From the sequence record OM386663.1: 64,000 nt of DNA; one strand, 5' to 3'. The stretch is from Escherichia phage vB_EcoM_ESCO49. The notes under the pieces were generated by a model. That model saw only the letters and a list, made by a program, of their open reading frames with translations. It was not told the origin of the DNA and did not search any database. Both the position numbers and the translations under genes were made by a program. Positions 2,364-26,234 of this stretch are shown here, piece by piece; position 1 is the stretch's first letter; every line of letters starts with the position of its first letter.

Positions 2364-2525
2364 AAGGAGAAACCACAATGTACGTCAGAGACATACTGTA
2401 TAAGTCTTCCTATAAAGTATAACTCTGTAAAAAAGCCCTGTCTAAAAATACTCTTCGGTAGCGAAAGGAAGAATACTTATAGCAGGGCATTATTATTATT
2501 TTAATTGAGAGAGAGTAAAATAACT

Positions 2526-2601
2526 TGGAGAATCCGAAGGGACTTGAACCCTTATAAACCTGTTTTGCAGACAGGCACATATCCATTTCTGTCACGGATT
2601 C
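2526..2601 (-). tRNA. tRNA-Cys (anticodon GCA)
   Basis: CCA encoded; perfect 7-bp acceptor (2530-2536 with 2595-2601); T-arm AAGGG/ACTTGAA/CCCTT; anticodon stem CCTGT/ACAGG, loop reads CUGCAAA. Confidence 0.75.
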
Positions 2602-2606
2602 GAAAT

Positions 2607-2697
2607 TGGGGGAAGATACCAGACTTGAACTGGTACACCGATTTCTCAGCTACTGGCAGTTTAGCAAACTGCTCCCTTACCTTTAGGGTTAATCTTC
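2607..2697 (-). tRNA. tRNA-Ser (anticodon GCU), type II
   Basis: Perfect acceptor (2611-2617 with 2691-2697); T-arm ACCAG/ACTTGAA/CTGGT; 21-nt variable arm; anticodon loop UUGCUAA. Confidence 0.7.
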
Positions 2698-2699
2698 CA

Positions 2700-3434
2700 T
2701 TATCTCTGTAATGCGCTCTTCATTTCTGGTGTTGCAATAGTATCAATCACACCAGTTTTACAAGCATCATCAAACCAGTCTGGTAAGATACCTGCTAAGA
2801 ACCCATTGATATTCGTTTTAAGGTACTCTGCAATAAGGGCAGCTTCTTCTTCAATCATCTGCACAACTTCATCTGCATAAGCTGTAATCTTTGAGATACC
2901 TTCATTAATCTTACTAACAGCCTGATTAGCTAAATCAGAAACAGTCTCAAGACCCTTATCAATAGCGTCTTGTAAGTCACTTAACACACCATTAACACTG
3001 TCTAGTGTGCTGTTAATCATGTCAATAGCTTGCTGACCATACTCTGTAGCAACACCCATAATACCACTAAATGGTGTACAACCAACTTGTTCTCCTGCTG
3101 CACCCATAACATTGGAGTATCCCTTTGCTACCTGCATACGTGATGAAAACTCATCAATAGACTTTTGACCGTAGTCTGTTAGGGTCTTAGTAGTTGCTGT
3201 AGTGCTTGTAAGGCTTGTTGTAAAGCTGTTTAGAAGGACTGTTGTGAGTCCAGCAGCAACAAGCTTCTCCTTCATTGTAGGGTCTGTTACAGAGCTAATA
3301 GAGCTTACAAGTGATGTAGAGGCAGCTACGGTTCCACCGAGAACTGCTGCACCAGTAATAAGTGGGTTAGAAAACCCTCTACCGGTTTTTAAGAGATTAA
3401 AAATCTCCTTACCTTGTTCTGTCATCTCTTTCAT
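2700..3434 (-). CDS. hypothetical protein (Ala/Ser/Thr/Gly-rich, about 244 aa)
   Basis: Track ORF 2700..3482 trimmed to the ATG at 3434..3432 because the upstream part overlaps a tRNA; low-complexity N-terminal half, helical C-terminal half. Confidence 0.4.
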   Translation of the reverse strand: MKEMTEQGKEIFNLLKTGRGFSNPLITGAAVLGGTVAASTSLVSSISSVTDPTMKEKLVAAGLTTVLLNSFTTSLTSTTATTKTLTDYGQKSIDEFSSRMQVAKGYSNVMGAAGEQVGCTPFSGIMGVATEYGQQAIDMINSTLDSVNGVLSDLQDAIDKGLETVSDLANQAVSKINEGISKITAYADEVVQMIEEEAALIAEYLKTNINGFLAGILPDWFDDACKTGVIDTIATPEMKSALQR

Positions 3435-3450
3435 TAAGCACCTTTGAAAT

Positions 3451-3521
3451 TGGTACTCCATATCGGATTCGAACCGATACATAACACAGATTTTAAGTCT
3501 GGCCTCTCTGCCAATTGGAGT
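3451..3521 (-). tRNA. compact tRNA, anticodon UAA (Leu by anticodon; atypical)
   Basis: CCA encoded; T-arm ATCGG/ATTCGAA/CCGAT; 6 of 7 acceptor pairs; short D-arm; 4-bp anticodon stem, loop CUUAAAA. Fold is non-canonical, so isotype is uncertain. Confidence 0.45.
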
Positions 3522-3531
3522 AATGGAGCAT

Positions 3532-3607
3532 TGGCTGGGGATGTTGGAATTGAACCAACTTCTTCGATTTCAAAGACCGAGGTTTTAACCTTGTAAACTA
3601 ATCCCCT
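3532..3607 (-). tRNA. tRNA-Gln (anticodon UUG)
   Basis: CCA encoded; T-arm GTTGG/AATTGAA/CCAAC; acceptor 3536-3542 with 3601-3607 (1:72 unpaired); anticodon loop CUUUGAA. Confidence 0.6.
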
Positions 3608-3615
3608 TTAAATCT

Positions 3616-4173
3616 TTACTTTCTCAGTGGATGAATAAAGAATGCCAACATAACTCTTTCCCTTGAGAATGCTCTTTCTTCTGGGACAACACTTTTTAGT
3701 TTCCATCCAATATAAATTCTCCAGTAAAACTGTTTACCAAAGATTTTAATTGATGGGATAAAAGCGAATAATCCCCAAGCATTGCTATTCCACATTAGGA
3801 GATAACCAGTCTGATTATCTTCAGGGTCAGAACTTACGCTGATATTACCTTTCCACTTAGTAACATCTTTTACATCTCTTCCTAATACATGGTAAGAGAA
3901 GTTATAAGCTTTGTTTCTCCAGAGCCATCCAACTCTCTGCATGTAGACACCCAGCTTACCAATCTTTCTAATCTTAGCCCATCTTTTAACGTGGCCTTCA
4001 TCACCATCAATCGGGTTGTCATAGGTCTCCATCCATCTGAATCCAAAAGGTAGATGCCCTTTCTTCTCACTGTAGAATGGAACCACGAAAGGTGCTAAGA
4101 TGACTGCTAGGGTTGCTGCAAATGGTTCTAGTAAAGCTAGGAAAATCCATGAAGCATACTTCAAATATCTCAT
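3616..4173 (-). CDS. hypothetical membrane protein embedded in the tRNA cluster
   Basis: 185-aa ORF with a hydrophobic N-terminal segment (WIFLALLEPFAATLAVILAPFVVPF); fills the gap between tRNAs without overlapping them. Confidence 0.35.
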   Translation of the reverse strand: MRYLKYASWIFLALLEPFAATLAVILAPFVVPFYSEKKGHLPFGFRWMETYDNPIDGDEGHVKRWAKIRKIGKLGVYMQRVGWLWRNKAYNFSYHVLGRDVKDVTKWKGNISVSSDPEDNQTGYLLMWNSNAWGLFAFIPSIKIFGKQFYWRIYIGWKLKSVVPEERAFSRERVMLAFFIHPLRK

Positions 4174-4192
4174 CTAAATAGCCTCTTAAAAT

Positions 4193-4270
4193 TGGTGTTC
4201 CAAGACGGATTCGAACCGTCACTAATACAAGGTTTGAGCTTGCATCCTCTGCCAATTGGGATACTGGAAC
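4193..4270 (-). tRNA. tRNA with anticodon CAA (Leu by anticodon; short variable arm)
   Basis: CCA encoded; T-arm GACGG/ATTCGAA/CCGTC; acceptor 4197-4203 with 4264-4270 (one G-U); anticodon stem 5 bp including G-U, loop CUCAAAC. Confidence 0.55.
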
Positions 4271-4271
4271 A

Positions 4272-4346
4272 TGGTACTCACTAAAGGACTTGAACCTTTT
4301 TCTTCATCTTGTAAGGGTGATGTTTTACCATATAAACTAAGCGAGT
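4272..4346 (-). tRNA. tRNA-Val (anticodon UAC)
   Basis: CCA encoded; T-arm AAAGG/ACTTGAA/CCTTT; acceptor with one mismatch; anticodon loop CUUACAA. Confidence 0.6.
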
Positions 4347-4441
4347 GTGAAAGAGGTCTGAAGTTGTGCCGCTAACTCAACTCCGTGGAATTTGTTACGG
4401 TCTTCAGTTGACACCAGCGGTCTTTCACTTGACCTCTGAAT

Positions 4442-4518
4442 TGGTGCTGCTCACAGGACTCGAACCTGCATTTCCATCCTTACAAGGGATGTGTAATAGC
4501 CAATTATACGAAAGCAGC
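4442..4518 (-). tRNA. tRNA-Thr (anticodon UGU)
   Basis: CCA encoded; T-loop ACTCGAA; perfect anticodon stem CATCC/GGATG, loop CUUGUAA; acceptor 6 bp plus G-U. Confidence 0.7.
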
Positions 4519-4524
4519 ATTATT

Positions 4525-4599
4525 TGGAGCATCCAGAGGGAATCGAACCCTCAACCTCAGTTTGGAAGACTGTAATTTTCCCGTTTAAACTATGGATGC
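4525..4599 (-). tRNA. tRNA-Gly (anticodon UCC)
   Basis: CCA encoded; perfect acceptor (4529-4535 with 4593-4599); T-arm GAGGG/AATCGAA/CCCTC; anticodon loop CUUCCAA. Confidence 0.7.
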
Positions 4600-4605
4600 A
4601 CTAAT

Positions 4606-4681
4606 TGGTGGAGAAGCAGGGAATTGAACCCTGTACTTAAGTTTGCAAAACTTATGTTTTAACCATGTAAACTACATCCCC
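4606..4681 (-). tRNA. tRNA-Ala (anticodon UGC)
   Basis: CCA encoded; T-arm CAGGG/AATTGAA/CCCTG; D-stem GUUU/AAAC; perfect anticodon stem UAAGU/ACUUA, loop UUUGCAA. Confidence 0.7.
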
Positions 4682-4687
4682 AATGTT

Positions 4688-4763
4688 TGGTACAGGTGGA
4701 GGGAATTGAACCCATCGTCTTACTGATTAAGAGTCAGCCGCATAACCATTTTGCTACACCTGC
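4688..4763 (-). tRNA. tRNA-Lys (anticodon CUU)
   Basis: CCA encoded; acceptor GCAGGUG/CACCUGU with G1-U72; T-loop UUCAAUU; anticodon stem GCUGA/UCAGU, loop CUCUUAA. Confidence 0.6.
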
Positions 4764-4770
4764 ATTAATT

Positions 4771-4847
4771 TGGTACACCTAGAGAGATTCGAACTCACAC
4801 TGAGCAGATTCTAAGTCTGCTGCCTCTACCAGTTGGGCTATAGGTGC
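4771..4847 (-). tRNA. tRNA with anticodon UAG (Leu by anticodon; short variable arm)
   Basis: CCA encoded; T-arm GAGAG/ATTCGAA/CTCAC; perfect anticodon stem GCAGA/TCTGC, loop CUUAGAA; canonical D-loop AACUGGUAG; 5-nt variable region. Confidence 0.6.
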
Positions 4848-5102
4848 ATTAAACCTTTTTAGAGAACTTCTAAGAACCTAAGCAACAAGGTTCCACAACA
4901 AGCCGTAATAACCTTAGAAGCCCTCTAAAAAGACCTAAAAAGGTCTTTGCATAGTCTTGTTTAATCCGGTGACTAGAACCTTTGGAGAGCTTGATATTAT
5001 CTCTTCTCCGTGACACCTGCTAGGTGCTTTATGAGTGTGTACGACAATACACGCGGGATACCAAAGCAACACCCTAATGAAGCTTGGCTTTAAATCTTAT
5101 TA

Positions 5103-5192
5103 GGCGGTAAGTAAAGGAGTCGAACCCTCACCGTATCTCTACAGTGGCAACTGTTTTCAAGACAGTTTGGCTACCATTAGCCGCTACCTACC
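5103..5192 (-). tRNA. tRNA-Ser (anticodon UGA), type II
   Basis: Acceptor GGUAGGU/ACUUACC; 3-bp D-stem; perfect anticodon stem ACUGU/ACAGU, loop CUUGAAA; about 20-nt variable arm; T-loop UUCGACU; 3' end CC without the final A. Confidence 0.65.
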
Positions 5193-5205
5193 CCTAATAA
5201 GACTT

Positions 5206-5288
5206 TGGCATGGGACGGAGGAGTTGAACCCCTTTGAAACGGTGTTGGAAGCCGTTGCTCATGCCTTAGAGTCTTAACATCGTCCCAT
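5206..5288 (-). tRNA. tRNA, probably Trp (anticodon CCA), 80 nt with enlarged D region
   Basis: CCA encoded; perfect acceptor (5210-5216 with 5282-5288); T-loop AGTTGAA; best anticodon loop UUCCAAC; D region is about 7 nt longer than canonical. Confidence 0.45.
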
Positions 5289-5431
5289 ACTATAATTCGA
5301 AGCTTACCGTATTATCTCAACACTGTAAAGCCCCTTCTCAGATTATTTACATGTTCTGGAAAACATGAGATACAGACCACCTCCCTACAGGAAGACCCGC
5401 TTAGGTCGTCTAAGTAATCTGCTAACTAAAT

Positions 5432-5518
5432 TGGTCGAGGCGGCAGGACTCGAACCCGCATACTCCACTTACTCGGTTAACGTCTGTTTAGAAGACAGAT
5501 GAGATACGCCCCGTAATT
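5432..5518 (-). tRNA. atypical tRNA-like gene (anticodon-type loop UCU; canonical D-arm not foldable)
   Basis: CCA encoded; good acceptor CGGGGCG/CGCCUCG and T-arm GCGGG/UUCGAGU/CCUGC; perfect hairpin UCUGU/ACAGA with loop CUUCUAA; only 7 nt where the D-arm should be and 23 nt between that hairpin and the T-arm. Confidence 0.4.
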
Positions 5519-5850
5519 ATCTTTAAAGACTCTCTTAGAAAGCCCTTAAAGATGCCCACCTTATTAATCATACCGTGGGCTAGTACGCCAAATTCTTTGA
5601 TGAGGGATTGGAAGACCTCACTGGTGTTTAGCCTATCAAGCTACTGCCAGAAAAACATTGTCGTTTGCATTTATTTTAAATTTGCAAAATAGACGCTACG
5701 CAACGAAAACTATTCAGAATATGTACAACAAATTTCCCCACATTGTGTTACGTCTAACGCTCATGTATTGGTGTTTGAATTATACATATTATGAAGTATT
5801 TTAGTTACTATAAAGTGGTCACATCTCAATGTCAACAACTTTATTGAAAT

Positions 5851-5926
5851 TGGTACTGGTAGGTGGAATCGAACCACCGACGTTCCCTTATCAGGGGAGT
5901 GTTATAACCTTCTTAACTATACCAGC
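5851..5926 (-). tRNA. tRNA-Ile (anticodon GAU)
   Basis: CCA encoded; perfect T-arm GGTGG/AATCGAA/CCACC; acceptor with G1-U72; anticodon loop CUGAUAA. Confidence 0.65.
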
Positions 5927-5927
5927 T

Positions 5928-6004
5928 TGGAGGTTCAGATGGGAATCGAACCCACATTCATAGGGCTTATGAGACCCTTGCATTACCTTATCTGCGACTG
6001 AACC
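5928..6004 (-). tRNA. tRNA-Met (anticodon CAU; elongator-type, or Ile2 if lysidinylated)
   Basis: CCA encoded; perfect acceptor (5932-5938 with 5998-6004); T-loop AATCGAA; anticodon stem AGGGU/GCCCU, loop CUCAUAA. Confidence 0.65.
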
Positions 6005-6008
6005 ATTT

Positions 6009-6084
6009 TGGTAGAAGTGGAGGGACTCGAACCCATCGCCTGTCAGATTAAAAGTCTGCCACATCACTATTCTGCTACACTTCC
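6009..6084 (-). tRNA. tRNA-Lys (anticodon UUU)
   Basis: CCA encoded; T-loop ACTCGAA; acceptor with G1-U72; anticodon loop CUUUUAA. Confidence 0.6.
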
Positions 6085-6278
6085 ATTAAATTATCTTTGT
6101 AGATAAGCTACCCAGACTTGCTTAAGGTCTGTAGCGATGTGACTTTTTGGGTTTAAATCTAGAATTTACCCTTTCACCCTTTGTGGTCGCATACTCACAG
6201 GTAAGCTTAATAACTTATCTACAAAGATAATTACCAGACCATTGTTTATCATCTTAACTAGATATCTCATAAAGTGTT

Positions 6279-6366
6279 TGGTGTGCCGTGTAGGAGTCGA
6301 ACCTACCGAGTCTCAATGACAAGGGATTTACAGTCCCCACCGCTACCATCTACGGGATAACGACAC
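6279..6366 (-). tRNA. tRNA-Tyr (anticodon GUA), type II
   Basis: CCA encoded; perfect T-arm GTAGG/AGTCGAA/CCTAC; 3-bp D-stem; anticodon stem GGGGA/UCCCU, loop CUGUAAA; about 15-nt variable arm. Confidence 0.6.
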
Positions 6367-6435
6367 ATCTAATTTCTATTCAGGCTAAGGACTTGCACCT
6401 TACAAATCGGTGAGTAATCGCTTCTCTCCTAAATT

Positions 6436-6512
6436 TGGCGGTTAGTCAGGGATTCGAACCCTGTGCCATTCGCTTAACAGGCGACCGCACATACCTTATG
6501 TGCTTCCTAACC
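6436..6512 (-). tRNA. tRNA-Asn (anticodon GUU)
   Basis: CCA encoded; perfect T-arm CAGGG/ATTCGAA/CCCTG; acceptor 6 bp; anticodon stem UCGC/GCGA, loop CUGUUAA. Confidence 0.6.
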
Positions 6513-6597
6513 ATGTTTAGTATTACCAGACCGTATCTTTCAATTTTTTCTGCTAAAAATTTAATAAATATTGCTGTAAACGGTCTTCTGTAAAATT

Positions 6598-6674
6598 TGG
6601 AGGCGGGTGCAGGAGTCGAACCTGCCGATACCATGCTAATGAGACATGTGAGACGCCCTTTCTCTATACCCGCA
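6598..6674 (-). tRNA. second CAU-anticodon tRNA (Met, fMet or Ile2)
   Basis: CCA encoded; perfect T-arm GCAGG/AGTCGAA/CCTGC; acceptor 6 bp with 1:72 unpaired; anticodon stem CAUGU/GCAUG, loop CUCAUUA. Confidence 0.6.
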
Positions 6675-6804
6675 ATTCTTAATGACCAGACCAAATCTCT
6701 TCTTTGTCCGATTTACCTTCAGATGAATAAGATTAAGTTTGCTGTAATTGGTCTTCTGTCAAAACTGGCGTTCCAGAAGGGATTTGTCTACTGGAACATT
6801 AATT

Positions 6805-6881
6805 TGGTCTCTGTTGGAGGACTTGAACCTCCGGCCTTACCGCCCCAAACGGAACGCTCTACCAAGCTGAGCTAAACAGAG
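6805..6881 (-). tRNA. tRNA-Pro (anticodon UGG)
   Basis: CCA encoded; perfect acceptor (6809-6815 with 6875-6881); perfect T-arm GGAGG/ACTTGAA/CCTCC; anticodon loop UUUGGGG. Confidence 0.65.
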
Positions 6882-25661: not shown

Positions 25662-25962
25662 AGCTTACCTTTTCGGTTAGTTCATATAAATCAACATGCT
25701 CAATACTGTCAATGTTGATATCAATCTTTTTGAAACGTTCTATCACTTCGTTGGCAGTCATCCATATCAGACACCAATGATTCTTGATGGATTCTTCAAG
25801 AAGGTCAACACAATCTTTAAAGGTTTTTGTATCACTCCTTGTTCCAACTACTGCAATTGTCCCATATAGCCACTTACCATTGTCATAAGTTACTTGTGCT
25901 ACACCAACCTCTTTACCTTTCTCGTAGTAAACAGCTACAAAGTCTCTTCCATTAATCTGCAT
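25639..25962 (-). CDS. hypothetical protein
   Basis: 107-aa ORF. Confidence 0.4.
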   Translation of the reverse strand: MQINGRDFVAVYYEKGKEVGVAQVTYDNGKWLYGTIAVVGTRSDTKTFKDCVDLLEESIKNHWCLIWMTANEVIERFKKIDINIDSIEHVDLYELTEKVSYESSRGN

Positions 25963-25964
25963 AG

Positions 25965-26234
25965 TTACTTCCTCGTTTTAAGAACTGCTAAGATTTCTTT
26001 AGAGTCTGGTAAGAACCATGTGTAGTGATTTTCTTTGATTTCTGGATGAGTGTCAACCTTTATTTTGCACTCTTTACCAACATGCTTAAGCTGTGCTGTG
26101 ACACCTTGCATAAAGATATGGCACATCACATTATCCATAATGGTTGGTGAGAAATCAATTCGCATATAAGTTTCTTTTGGTCGTGGTAACAGTAAGTAAC
26201 CCTCTACATAGAAAGTATCTTGGTTCTCTGTCAT
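25965..26234 (-). CDS. hypothetical protein
   Basis: 89-aa ORF. Confidence 0.4.
   Translation of the reverse strand: MTENQDTFYVEGYLLLPRPKETYMRIDFSPTIMDNVMCHIFMQGVTAQLKHVGKECKIKVDTHPEIKENHYTWFLPDSKEILAVLKTRK

Follow-up and report, generated by a model that had tools for sequence, protein, structure and literature searches.

Animal mitochondrial transfer RNAs (tRNAs) that lack a D arm are about 55–65 nucleotides (nt) long and are without the canonical T-loop and D-loop elements. These shortened molecules, of which mitochondrial tRNA-Ser(AGY/UCU) is an example, have lost the G18G19/T-loop contacts and depend on specialised organellar factors, and they function in translation (PMC7609411, PMC9976931); outside animal mitochondria the cloverleaf is treated as near-universal. 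The long variable arm of tRNA-Leu, according to a review of tRNA identity, is kept everywhere except in animal mitochondria (PMC9976931). Here we analysed a tRNA gene cluster in a 64,000-nt stretch of DNA from Escherichia phage vB_EcoM_ESCO49 (sequence record OM386663.1), hereafter the window, and describe three kinds of atypical gene in it: a probable non-cloverleaf tRNA-Arg(UCU) gene at positions 5432–5513 (here called ncArg), a gene of Trp type with a CCA anticodon at 5206–5288 and three tRNA genes with Leu anticodons and short variable regions.

The region corresponds to the tRNA gene cluster already familiar from Felix O1-like phages (Felixounavirus, Ounavirinae). The 4.7 kb around the cluster were 96–97% identical over 100% of their length to Felixounavirus genomes, and 418 GenBank phage records matched this region, 219 of which covered at least 80% of the query. 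The annotated clusters of Felix O1, VpaE1 and Sf13 are colinear with that of the window and have the same gene order, and in all three phages the homologous cluster is flanked by a terminase large subunit gene and an ‘RNA-binding protein’ gene. Compared with the Felix O1 cluster (PMC3185647; NC_005282), the window cluster agrees in genomic position, strand and gene order with about 96% nucleotide identity, but is without the Glu, Asp, Phe, His, Gln(CUG) and Arg(ACG) genes and the three HNH endonuclease open reading frames (ORFs) of Felix O1, and has one CAU tRNA more. The published Felix O1 list of 22 tRNAs omits ncArg and the Trp-type gene, though Felix O1 has both (PMC3185647). The cluster itself is already known, and it is the ncArg class, the Trp-type gene and the short-arm Leu tRNAs that go beyond its annotation; full-text literature searches on D-armless phage tRNAs, non-canonical phage tRNA-Arg, short-arm phage tRNA-Leu and the tRNAs of Felix O1, in which few subscription journals were covered, found none of these three kinds of structure described.

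An earlier note on the window, made by hand folding of the sequence, had put the cluster at about 21 tRNA genes, all on the minus strand and most of them encoding CCA. In the window as a whole, ARAGORN called 19 tRNA genes, every one of them on the minus strand and within 2526–6881. The Rfam tRNA model RF00005 reported 18 at its gathering score, including 5435–5513, which ARAGORN misses, and missed the Tyr gene (6279–6366) and one CAU tRNA (6598–6674), both of which ARAGORN calls. A scan for the T-loop motif G[TG]TCRA gave exactly 21 tRNA-type genes in the cluster, in agreement with the note, and the stricter motif GGTTCRA.YCC had no occurrence outside the cluster on either strand of the window. 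CCA is encoded in 20 of the 21 genes, the exception being Ser(UGA) at 5103–5192, which ends in GCC-U. Both CAU-anticodon tRNAs of the note were found by ARAGORN, which likewise found no Asp, Glu, Phe, His or Gly(GCC) gene in the whole window, as the note had stated; since Felix O1, VpaE1 and Sf13 carry Asp, Glu, Phe and His genes, we read the absence of these four as a strain-level difference.

The locus at 5206–5288, missed by both ARAGORN and Rfam, is backed by comparative analysis only. The two loci missed by the gene finders are conserved with compensatory base changes in related phages, and 5432–5513 also in unrelated phages; they are therefore not chance folds. Software did not refold the atypical loci into canonical cloverleaves with other anticodons, ARAGORN and Rfam either missing them or aligning them with the D arm deleted. 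With relaxed ARAGORN settings (-ps80), ncArg was still missed, and only a spurious ‘Pyl(cta)’ call was obtained, overlapping the Trp-type gene.

The ncArg gene: fold, distribution and probable identity

On the minus strand, ncArg begins with the acceptor strand CGGGGCG, followed by U8 A9 U10, C11 U12 C13, A14 and the anticodon arm UCUGU-CUUCUAA-ACAGA. The anticodon arm is followed by a bulge (CGUUAACC), a GAG that pairs with C11–C13, a D-loop-like segment (UAAGUGGA) and GUAU, and the gene ends with the T arm GCGGG-UUCGAGU-CCUGC, the acceptor 3' strand CGCCUCG, A73 and CCA. Exactly as the earlier note had described, only 7 nt (UAUCUCA) lie between the acceptor and anticodon stems, where there is no D hairpin; of the coordinates that it had given (5432–5518), the start was right and the end moved to 5513. 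C11-N12-C13 forms a helix with a GNG on the 3' side of the anticodon arm, and because this helix encloses the anticodon arm, the fold is a three-way junction and not a cloverleaf. The strand after the enclosing helix, UAANUGGA, agrees with the D loop of a canonical tRNA-Arg (AACUGGA in the VpaE1 allele).

Apart from the D stem-loop that is missing between positions 9 and 26, the gene has the parts of a canonical tRNA, namely a 7-base-pair (bp) acceptor, a 5-bp anticodon stem with a 7-nt loop (U33, purine at 37), a 5-bp T stem with a GTTCRA loop, and a discriminator followed by CCA. Rfam RF00005 scored 5435–5513 at 33.4 bits (threshold 29) with the D arm deleted, 4 nt being aligned at the 15-position D arm and 20 nt inserted in the variable region, and family model R1 scored ncArg at 99.4 bits, where ordinary tRNAs reached at most 34.

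The proposed helices were then compared across relatives. In an alignment of 43 ncArg sequences, 99.1% of the cells were paired, 15 of the 20 pairs had double changes and none of 500 shuffles was as good. The wider set was collected by IMG/VR pattern scans, which fixed several core bases and under-sample the variability of the family, and by two covariance models, whose alignments lean towards the model; in its at least 110 distinct sequences, 98.2% of the cells were paired and 19 of the 20 pairs had double changes. Covariation was seen in each of the acceptor, anticodon and T stems. The pairs of the enclosing helix in the 110-sequence alignment were CG 107, AU 2 and GC 1 at 11–44, UA 52, CG 27, AU 19 and GC 12 at 12–43, and CG 106 and GC 3 at 13–42, with an invariant U10/U45 on one flank and A.C (45) or C.A (44) at position 14/41 on the other. 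When complementarity was not required, N12 and the middle base of GNG were U-A in 58, C-G in 23, A-U in 17 and G-C in 9 of the 107 matches listed, with no exception. Shared ancestry inflates all such covariation counts; yet 12–43 has four Watson-Crick types across many acceptor and anticodon stems.

Pairing of C11–C13 with a second GAG, in UGGAG, was rejected; that GAG is limited to the subfamily of the window, other subfamilies showing UGGACACAU and similar sequences, while for the first GNG covariation is perfect. At about 5375 there is a further copy of the GTATCTCA motif, which was judged to be a chance 8-mer. The bulge CGUUAACC (5473–5480) and the connector GAUGUUAAGA of the Trp-type gene (5271–5280) have GUUAA in common, in both genes beside the CNC/GNG helix, which may be a coincidence or a shared tertiary motif; in other ncArg subfamilies the bulge is replaced by UGAAA, AGAAA or AGAA.

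Compared with canonical tRNA-Arg(UCU), as in the VpaE1 allele, ncArg has the same anticodon, the loop CUUCUAA, the sequence AAYUGGA with an A at the presumed position 20, an ordinary T arm and the slot that the canonical gene occupies in sister phages, but it is without a D hairpin, the 3' strand of its D stem and its D loop standing after the anticodon arm and its junction being three-way rather than four-way. The closest analogue of ncArg is the D-armless tRNA of animal mitochondria, which also has no D hairpin between the acceptor and anticodon stems. Unlike these tRNAs, ncArg is of full length (79 nt plus CCA) and has not lost the T-loop and D-loop elements: it has a canonical T loop (GGTTCGA), a UGG segment followed by the presumed A20, and a surrogate D helix of 3 bp, and it would have to work with the ordinary factors of bacteria.

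In BLAST searches, the 84-nt ncArg element was found with 85–88% identity in phages unrelated to Felix O1. Its carriers are 121Q/PBECO4 jumbo phages, phi92-like and other myoviruses of about 140–150 kb from E. coli, Klebsiella and Serratia, and T5-like Klebsiella phages, and more distant matches were found in Streptomyces and Vibrio phages. The element is almost never annotated in the matching records, and ARAGORN called 5 of the 138 ncArg family genes (about 96% missed). The core pattern occurred on only 2 contigs, both of metagenome-assembled genomes, among 185,579 species-representative genomes, and the element had no match in 5,426 complete E. coli genomes. Records labelled as Campylobacter phages A132, C3 and A110a and Listeria phage LPML1 matched the ncArg region at up to 100% or had tRNA clusters like those of Ounavirinae or coliphages; their host labels seem doubtful, possibly through contamination or mislabelling.

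An IMG/VR scan that was blind to the anticodon gave, among the matches listed, Arg anticodons only (UCU 84, ACG 12, CCU 10 and UCG 1), and covariance-model searches added four members of the class with Ile anticodons (UAU and GAU) and A73. The base after UAANUGG was A in 108 of 108 Arg members in one alignment (A7) and 92 of 92 in an overlapping one (A8), and U in 4 of 4 Ile-anticodon members. A20 is the main determinant of arginyl-tRNA synthetase (ArgRS) and U20 a determinant of isoleucyl-tRNA synthetase (IleRS) (PMC9976931). That the base is A in Arg members and U in Ile members, as these identity rules predict, argues that it corresponds to position 20 and that the standard rules are obeyed there. 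The ncArg gene of the window also has C35 and U36 (loop CUUCUAA) and A73, as in the identity set of bacterial tRNA-Arg (A20, C35, U/G36 and A/G73; PMC9976931).

From these features, ncArg is most likely a working tRNA-Arg. Whether it also represents an undescribed, almost phage-only class of tRNAs is to us an evenly balanced question; such a class would have a D arm that is split and permuted around a three-way junction, at least four Arg and two Ile anticodons that follow the position-20 rules, and a range covering phages of Proteobacteria and Actinobacteria and many uncultured viral contigs. Two or three nested-D-stem tRNAs with different Arg anticodons were seen on each of the IMG/VR contigs L197, L180, L189, L175, L208, L049 and L033, those of L197 being CCU, UCU and ACG. 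Versions with Ile anticodons were on contigs L210, L207, L173 and L220, and on L173 and L220 they lie about 4–14 nt from a canonical tRNA-Ile(GAU).

The ncArg site is occupied by a canonical tRNA-Arg(UCU) in VpaE1, in Sf13 and in further Ounavirinae, and the flanks of the window ncArg align base for base, to the gene boundaries, with those of the canonical gene in VpaE1 and Sf13, so that the two kinds of gene are exchanged in situ. Felix O1 has an ncArg homologue at about 25951–26032. AGA makes up 166 of the 579 Arg codons in the window, and the Felix O1 genome paper reported that AGA is over-used and that a phage tRNA for it ‘might have been expected’ and was not found (PMC3185647); ncArg, if it works as proposed, would explain this anomaly of a ‘missing’ AGA tRNA.

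Codon supply alone leaves unexplained why this fold should be preferred, ncArg standing in the slot of a perfectly serviceable canonical tRNA-Arg(UCU). The most attractive idea for this displacement is escape from a host defence that targets tRNAs, and no direct support for it was found. In a stronger form of the idea, ncArg would serve mainly against defence, either because its core is invisible to a host enzyme that cleaves or modifies tRNAs or because it is a decoy, and codon supply would be secondary. The near confinement of the family to phages, yet across unrelated groups of them, is consistent with such a role, and so are reports that phage tRNAs rescue phages from tRNA-targeting defences and that the cleavage site of some of these defences lies outside the anticodon, the variable loop of tRNA-Tyr being one example (PMC11555353, PMC13096335, PMC12673091). 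However, no defence system against the D arm of tRNA-Arg was identified in this analysis, and a pure decoy would have no need for four Arg anticodons, several isoacceptors per genome or matching at position 20. We consider it unlikely that defence is the main role of ncArg, but this role is compatible with that of a codon-supplying tRNA-Arg and not opposed to it, and ncArg would then be a concrete candidate for a tRNA shaped by the arms race with tRNA-targeting defences.

The Trp-type gene, the Leu-anticodon tRNAs and further readings of the atypical loci

The gene at 5206–5288 had been described in the earlier note as 80 nt long with an enlarged D region. The length was correct (80 nt plus CCA), while the D region is better described as an 8-bp acceptor and a 9-nt connector before an ordinary small D hairpin. 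The 5' part comprises the acceptor (AUGGGACG), the connector (AUGUUAAGA) and the D hairpin CUC-UAAGGCAU-GAG, and the 3' part a 5-bp anticodon stem with a 9-nt loop (C-UUCCAAC-A), UCAAA, a 4-bp T stem, G73 and CCA. The gene departs from canonical tRNAs in its connector of 9–10 nt, which is normally 2 nt, and in its anticodon loop, which is of 9 nt, or of 7 nt closed by C.A; in an alternative fold, a 7-bp acceptor is combined with a 5-bp T stem containing an A49.C65 mismatch.

Neither an ARAGORN call nor an Rfam tRNA match even at E ≤ 10 was obtained for the locus. The gene is conserved in 235 Ounavirinae records, in which it is never annotated as a tRNA. In an alignment of 10 distinct sequences, 100% of the cells were paired and 8 pairs had double changes, with none in slid controls. 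The consensus has the D hairpin CNC-UAAGGCAU-GNG, whose middle pair covaries (U-A 5, A-U 5), together with the invariant 9-nt connector, the loop C-YUCCAAM-A and four covarying anticodon-stem pairs. A pattern scan for a wider family, with the D region left free, gave only Ounavirinae-sized contigs.

Allo-tRNAs and bacterial selenocysteine tRNA (tRNA-Sec) are 8/4 and 8/5 tRNAs (reviewed in PMC7609411). The Trp-type gene is like them in its potential for an acceptor of 8 bp and a T stem of 4 bp, together 12 bp, and unlike them in being without a long variable arm and Ser/Sec features and in having a CCA anticodon, G73, A1-U72, a 9-nt connector and a 9-nt anticodon loop. Its G73, A1-U72 and CCA anticodon are the bacterial Trp determinants (PMC9976931), and some relatives have G1.U72 or G1-C72 in place of A1-U72. 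The annotated tRNAs of Sf13 and Wc4-1 cover 19 amino acids, Trp alone lacking, and both phages have the Trp-type gene. From these determinants and the sets lacking only Trp, we infer that 5206–5288, the only CCA-anticodon gene of the phage, is its tRNA-Trp.

The conservation of the 9-nt loop, flanked by C...A (C...C in Wc4-1), would also suit an RNA that, owing to this loop (or a C31.A39 mismatch) and its altered core, is not a plain Trp decoder and reads UGA, causes frameshifting or acts as a regulatory tRNA-like RNA. Changes in the D arm of tRNA-Trp allow UGA to be read. Changes in its anticodon stem are reported to have the same effect (PMC13092985). Nevertheless, the inner 7 nt (YUCCAAM) are a normal Trp-type loop with U33 and A37, the gene is the sole one of Trp type in otherwise complete 19-amino-acid sets, UGA is the stop codon of 11 of the 52 long ORFs in the window, and no recoding signal was seen. 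A role other than plain Trp decoding thus seems improbable to us.

The three Leu-anticodon tRNAs, for which the earlier note had claimed short variable arms, were folded by ARAGORN as tRNAs of 77–79 nt with short variable regions; for Leu(UAA), placed by the note at 3451–3521, the start was retained and the end corrected to 3529. All three have a 3-bp D stem, an 11-nt D loop (CAAYUGGYAGA), A73 and a variable region of about 5–8 nt with U directly before the T stem, and none has the long variable arm of type II tRNAs, which is a stem-loop of more than 10 nt. They agree with type II bacterial tRNA-Leu in A73, the 3-bp D stem, the D-loop sequence AAYUGGYAGA and the Leu anticodons, and differ from it in the variable region. 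Because a D arm of this kind (GUGGYG-GAAUUGGUAGA-CRC) is also found in the long-arm Leu tRNAs of clusters in other phages, the window genes look like type II tRNA-Leu genes that have lost the long variable arm.

Short arms were also found elsewhere. Among 79 distinct Leu-anticodon tRNAs in the fetched loci, 40 were of 81 nt or less, and 19 of those 40 came from contigs with no relation to Ounavirinae, among them those of Streptomyces phages and jumbo phages. Whole sets of short-arm (75–78 nt) Leu tRNAs were present in the unrelated viral contigs L212, L234, L130/L136, L049 and L025, with the anticodons CAG, GAG, UAA and CAA on L212. Arm loss is therefore recurrent in phages and not special to those like Felix O1.

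The E. coli leucyl-tRNA synthetase (LeuRS) needs A73, A15-U48, G18G19 and A20a, and neither the anticodon nor the long arm (PMC9976931); all of these identity nucleotides are present in the three window tRNAs. Since A73, A14/A15, G18G19, A20a and the U before the T stem are all kept, we infer that the three tRNAs are leucine acceptors, in which case they contradict the textbook rule that the long arm is retained outside animal mitochondria. The unusual short arm might alternatively mark tRNAs that accept another amino acid, so that Leu codons would be reassigned or mistranslated, or genes that are inactive. This is very unlikely, given that A73 and the Leu-type D arm are kept while E. coli LeuRS ignores the long arm and the anticodon, that such short-arm tRNAs are conserved in many phage lineages, and that loss of the long arm takes away the main determinant of seryl-tRNA synthetase.

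Still less probable is that ncArg and the Trp-type gene are decaying pseudogenes or fragments left by recombination and homing-endonuclease traffic. The cluster is indeed rearranged between strains, with HNH ORFs among the tRNA genes of relatives and one of them over the Felix O1 homologue of ncArg, and neighbouring genes are labelled ‘pseudo’ or ‘OTHER’ in tRNAscan-based annotations. Yet every ncArg helix has been kept by compensatory substitutions in at least 110 distinct sequences from unrelated phage groups, the Trp-type helices have likewise been kept across Ounavirinae genera, and the anticodons of the ncArg family are limited to Arg and Ile and track position 20.

Hardly credible is a mis-assigned anticodon hairpin, by which ncArg would be a Leu(UAA) tRNA, as GenBank KM507819 (phage 121Q) annotates its homologue (tRNA-Leu(taa)), or an Ala-accepting RNA like transfer-messenger RNA (tmRNA), as G3.U70 with A73 in the window copy and weak Rfam tmRNA-type matches nearby might suggest, since the UCU hairpin has a 5-bp stem in which all five pairs covary and a constant U33-N3-A37 loop. 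The Leu(UAA) assignment was rejected on the sequence GUUAAYC, which has no flanking stem and is replaced by 3–5 nt in other subfamilies. The Ala/tmRNA identity was rejected on G3.U70, which is not conserved: phi92 has G3-C70, and pair 3–70 (3–76 in alignment A4) was GC in 22, AU in 7, GU in 7, UA in 4 and CG in 3 sequences. The tmRNA-type matches were also discarded, with 10–21 bits compared with a gathering score of 47.

Proposed expression and codon supply, and the remaining features of the cluster

The genome has 38.9% G+C, and the tRNA set fits the enriched codons AGA, UUA, CUU and CUA. Many genes of the cluster are 1–13 nt apart, and according to the Felix O1 paper there is no phage RNA polymerase and the promoters are of host type (PMC3185647); given this spacing, the host-type promoters and the positions of the candidate promoters (Table 1), polycistronic precursors cut by host ribonucleases (RNases) would fit the cluster. 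Transcription of the 21 genes probably starts at sigma-70 promoters of the host type and yields multi-tRNA precursors, from which host enzymes would cut out the tRNAs, nearly all with CCA already encoded, and host synthetases would charge them. The cluster would thereby supply AGA, UUA, CUU/CUA and other codons whose use is much heavier in the AT-rich phage than in its host. In ncArg, the surrogate D helix (D*) and the anticodon arm would form one continuous arm at the three-way junction, and the D-loop sequence UAANUGG-A20 would be a single strand that reaches the T loop and presents A20 to ArgRS.

Overall, we hold it to be probable that the window carries a Felix O1-like cluster with short-arm Leu tRNAs, a non-cloverleaf tRNA-Arg(UCU) and a Trp-type CCA tRNA. 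Several points weigh against this interpretation. That the genes are transcribed and processed, and that their products are charged with Arg, Trp or Leu and used by the ribosome, is deduced from sequence logic. The promoter scan gave 12 sites compared with 9.7 expected from shuffles, which is no enrichment, and the role of the candidate promoters is suggested by their position only. RNAfold energies were no better than after shuffling, with z-scores of 0.04 (ncArg) and −1.56 (Trp-type gene); such z-scores are common for tRNAs and uninformative, and thermodynamics lends no support. The nested D* helix is argued to be feasible in three dimensions. In the ncArg family the discriminator varies (G 50, A 37, U 20, C 3), and CCA is encoded in only 61 of the 107 wider family members among the matches listed. 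The low redundancy of ncArg, which speaks for the interpretation, a canonical tRNA with the same anticodon being present in the same fetched locus for only 3 of the 138 family genes, comes from a biased sample whose loci were fetched through the ncArg element itself. The Trp-type alignment consists of only its 10 distinct sequences, all from one subfamily, and with a 9-nt loop or a C.A closing pair, ordinary triplet decoding by this tRNA is not assured.

If the interpretation is right, ncArg would be a natural experiment on the true requirements of the ribosome, EF-Tu, RNase P, modification enzymes and ArgRS/IleRS, and a tRNA that is not a cloverleaf would be acceptable to bacterial ribosomes, EF-Tu, RNase P and class Ia synthetases. 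Phage tRNA repertoires would then be systematically under-counted in tRNAscan-SE and ARAGORN censuses, and the atypical RNAs could serve as compact or orthogonal tRNA scaffolds.

Table 1. Coordinates of the tRNA genes and other features of the cluster in the window
Feature	Position	Strand	Support
tRNA-Pro(UGG), canonical, CCA encoded	6805..6881	-	ARAGORN; Rfam 57.7 bits
tRNA CAU (first of two), atypical	6598..6674	-	ARAGORN
tRNA-Asn(GUU)	6436..6512	-	ARAGORN, Rfam
tRNA-Tyr(GUA), type II, long variable arm, weak D stem	6279..6366	-	ARAGORN
tRNA-Lys(UUU)	6009..6084	-	ARAGORN, Rfam
tRNA CAU (second of two), loop CUCAUAA, U73	5928..6004	-	ARAGORN, Rfam
tRNA-Ile(GAU)	5851..5926	-	ARAGORN, Rfam
Non-cloverleaf tRNA-Arg(UCU), ncArg	5432..5513	-	Rfam 33.4 bits; family model R1 99.4 bits; covariation
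Non-canonical CCA-anticodon (Trp-type) tRNA	5206..5288	-	Conserved with compensatory changes across Ounavirinae
tRNA-Ser(UGA), type II, without encoded CCA	5103..5192	-	ARAGORN, Rfam
tRNA-Leu(UAG), 77 nt, short variable region, 3-bp D stem, loop CAACUGGUAGA, A73	4771..4847	-	ARAGORN, Rfam
tRNA-Lys(CUU)	4688..4763	-	ARAGORN, Rfam
tRNA-Ala(UGC)	4606..4681	-	ARAGORN, Rfam
tRNA-Gly(UCC)	4525..4599	-	ARAGORN, Rfam
tRNA-Thr(UGU)	4442..4518	-	ARAGORN, Rfam
tRNA-Val(UAC)	4272..4346	-	ARAGORN, Rfam
tRNA-Leu(CAA), 78 nt, short variable region, D loop CAAUUGGCAGA, A73	4193..4270	-	ARAGORN, Rfam
tRNA-Gln(UUG)	3532..3607	-	ARAGORN, Rfam
tRNA-Leu(UAA), 79 nt, short variable region, D loop CAAUUGGCAGA, A73	3451..3529	-	ARAGORN, Rfam
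tRNA-Ser(GCU), type II	2607..2698	-	ARAGORN, Rfam
tRNA-Cys(GCA), last gene of cluster	2526..2601	-	ARAGORN, Rfam
Two sigma-70-like promoters, perfect TTGACA -35, upstream of tRNA-Pro	7027-6999 and 6937-6908	-	Consensus scan
Sigma-70-like promoter, TTGACA-17-TATAGT, 11/12 matches, upstream of ncArg/Trp-type/Ser block	5807..5835	-	Consensus scan
ORF, 260 amino acids, inside cluster; homologue of Felix O1 ORF49, hypothetical protein	2700..3482	-	
ORF, 185 amino acids, inside cluster; homologue of Felix O1 ORF48, ‘phage conserved protein’	3616..4173	-	
Terminator-like compound hairpin, GCCCUG...CAGGGC then UUUUUU, downstream of tRNA-Cys	2429..2488	-	Direct reading

The terminator-like hairpin was read by eye, the scan having passed over it on account of its long loop. 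Among the other cluster members, the CAU tRNA at 6598–6674 combines a U1.C72 mismatch and a connector of 3 nt from acceptor to D stem with U37 and U73. The Rfam tRNA model gave no match to it even at E ≤ 10, and a Cove score of 28.9 is given for the homologue in Felix O1 (PMC3185647); it may be an initiator-like, an elongator or a non-standard tRNA. The CAU tRNA at 5928–6004 is regular apart from U73. Met and Ile2, the latter with lysidine (k2C), are both candidate identities for the two CAU tRNAs. The tRNA-Tyr, missed by the Rfam tRNA model, matched only the tRNA-Sec model, at 32 bits, and its homologue is flagged as pseudo by tRNAscan in Felix O1 records. The tRNA-Ser(UGA) scored 39 bits with the tRNA-Sec model, whose threshold is 47, and 33 bits with the tRNA model.

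The spacers at 6675–6804, 6513–6597 and 6085–6278 have in common a repeated element, ACAGAAGACC...GGUCUGGUAAU on the minus strand, whose ends can pair, and a 22-nt inverted repeat that is 95% complementary (6089–6110/6211–6232) encloses 100 nt. These repeats may be processing hairpins, or scars where relatives have Glu and Asp tRNA genes. Another stretch on the minus strand, 5514–5850, has 337 nt without a tRNA gene between the strong promoter-like sequence at 5835–5807 and ncArg. It is conserved in VpaE1 (3200–3447 of locus L050), contains a 27-nt imperfect inverted repeat (5702–5728/5780–5806) and had only sub-threshold Rfam matches of tmRNA type.

HNH homing-endonuclease ORFs lie between the tRNA genes, or partly over them, in Felix O1 (3081–3494, 4412–4804 and 5292–5777 of locus L001) and also in Alf5, heid and JN01. 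One of those of Felix O1 overlaps the 3' end of the ncArg homologue, and the window cluster has no HNH ORF. Since the tRNA content differs between strains in step with the HNH insertions, this pattern suggests endonuclease-driven cassette exchange of tRNA genes between strains.

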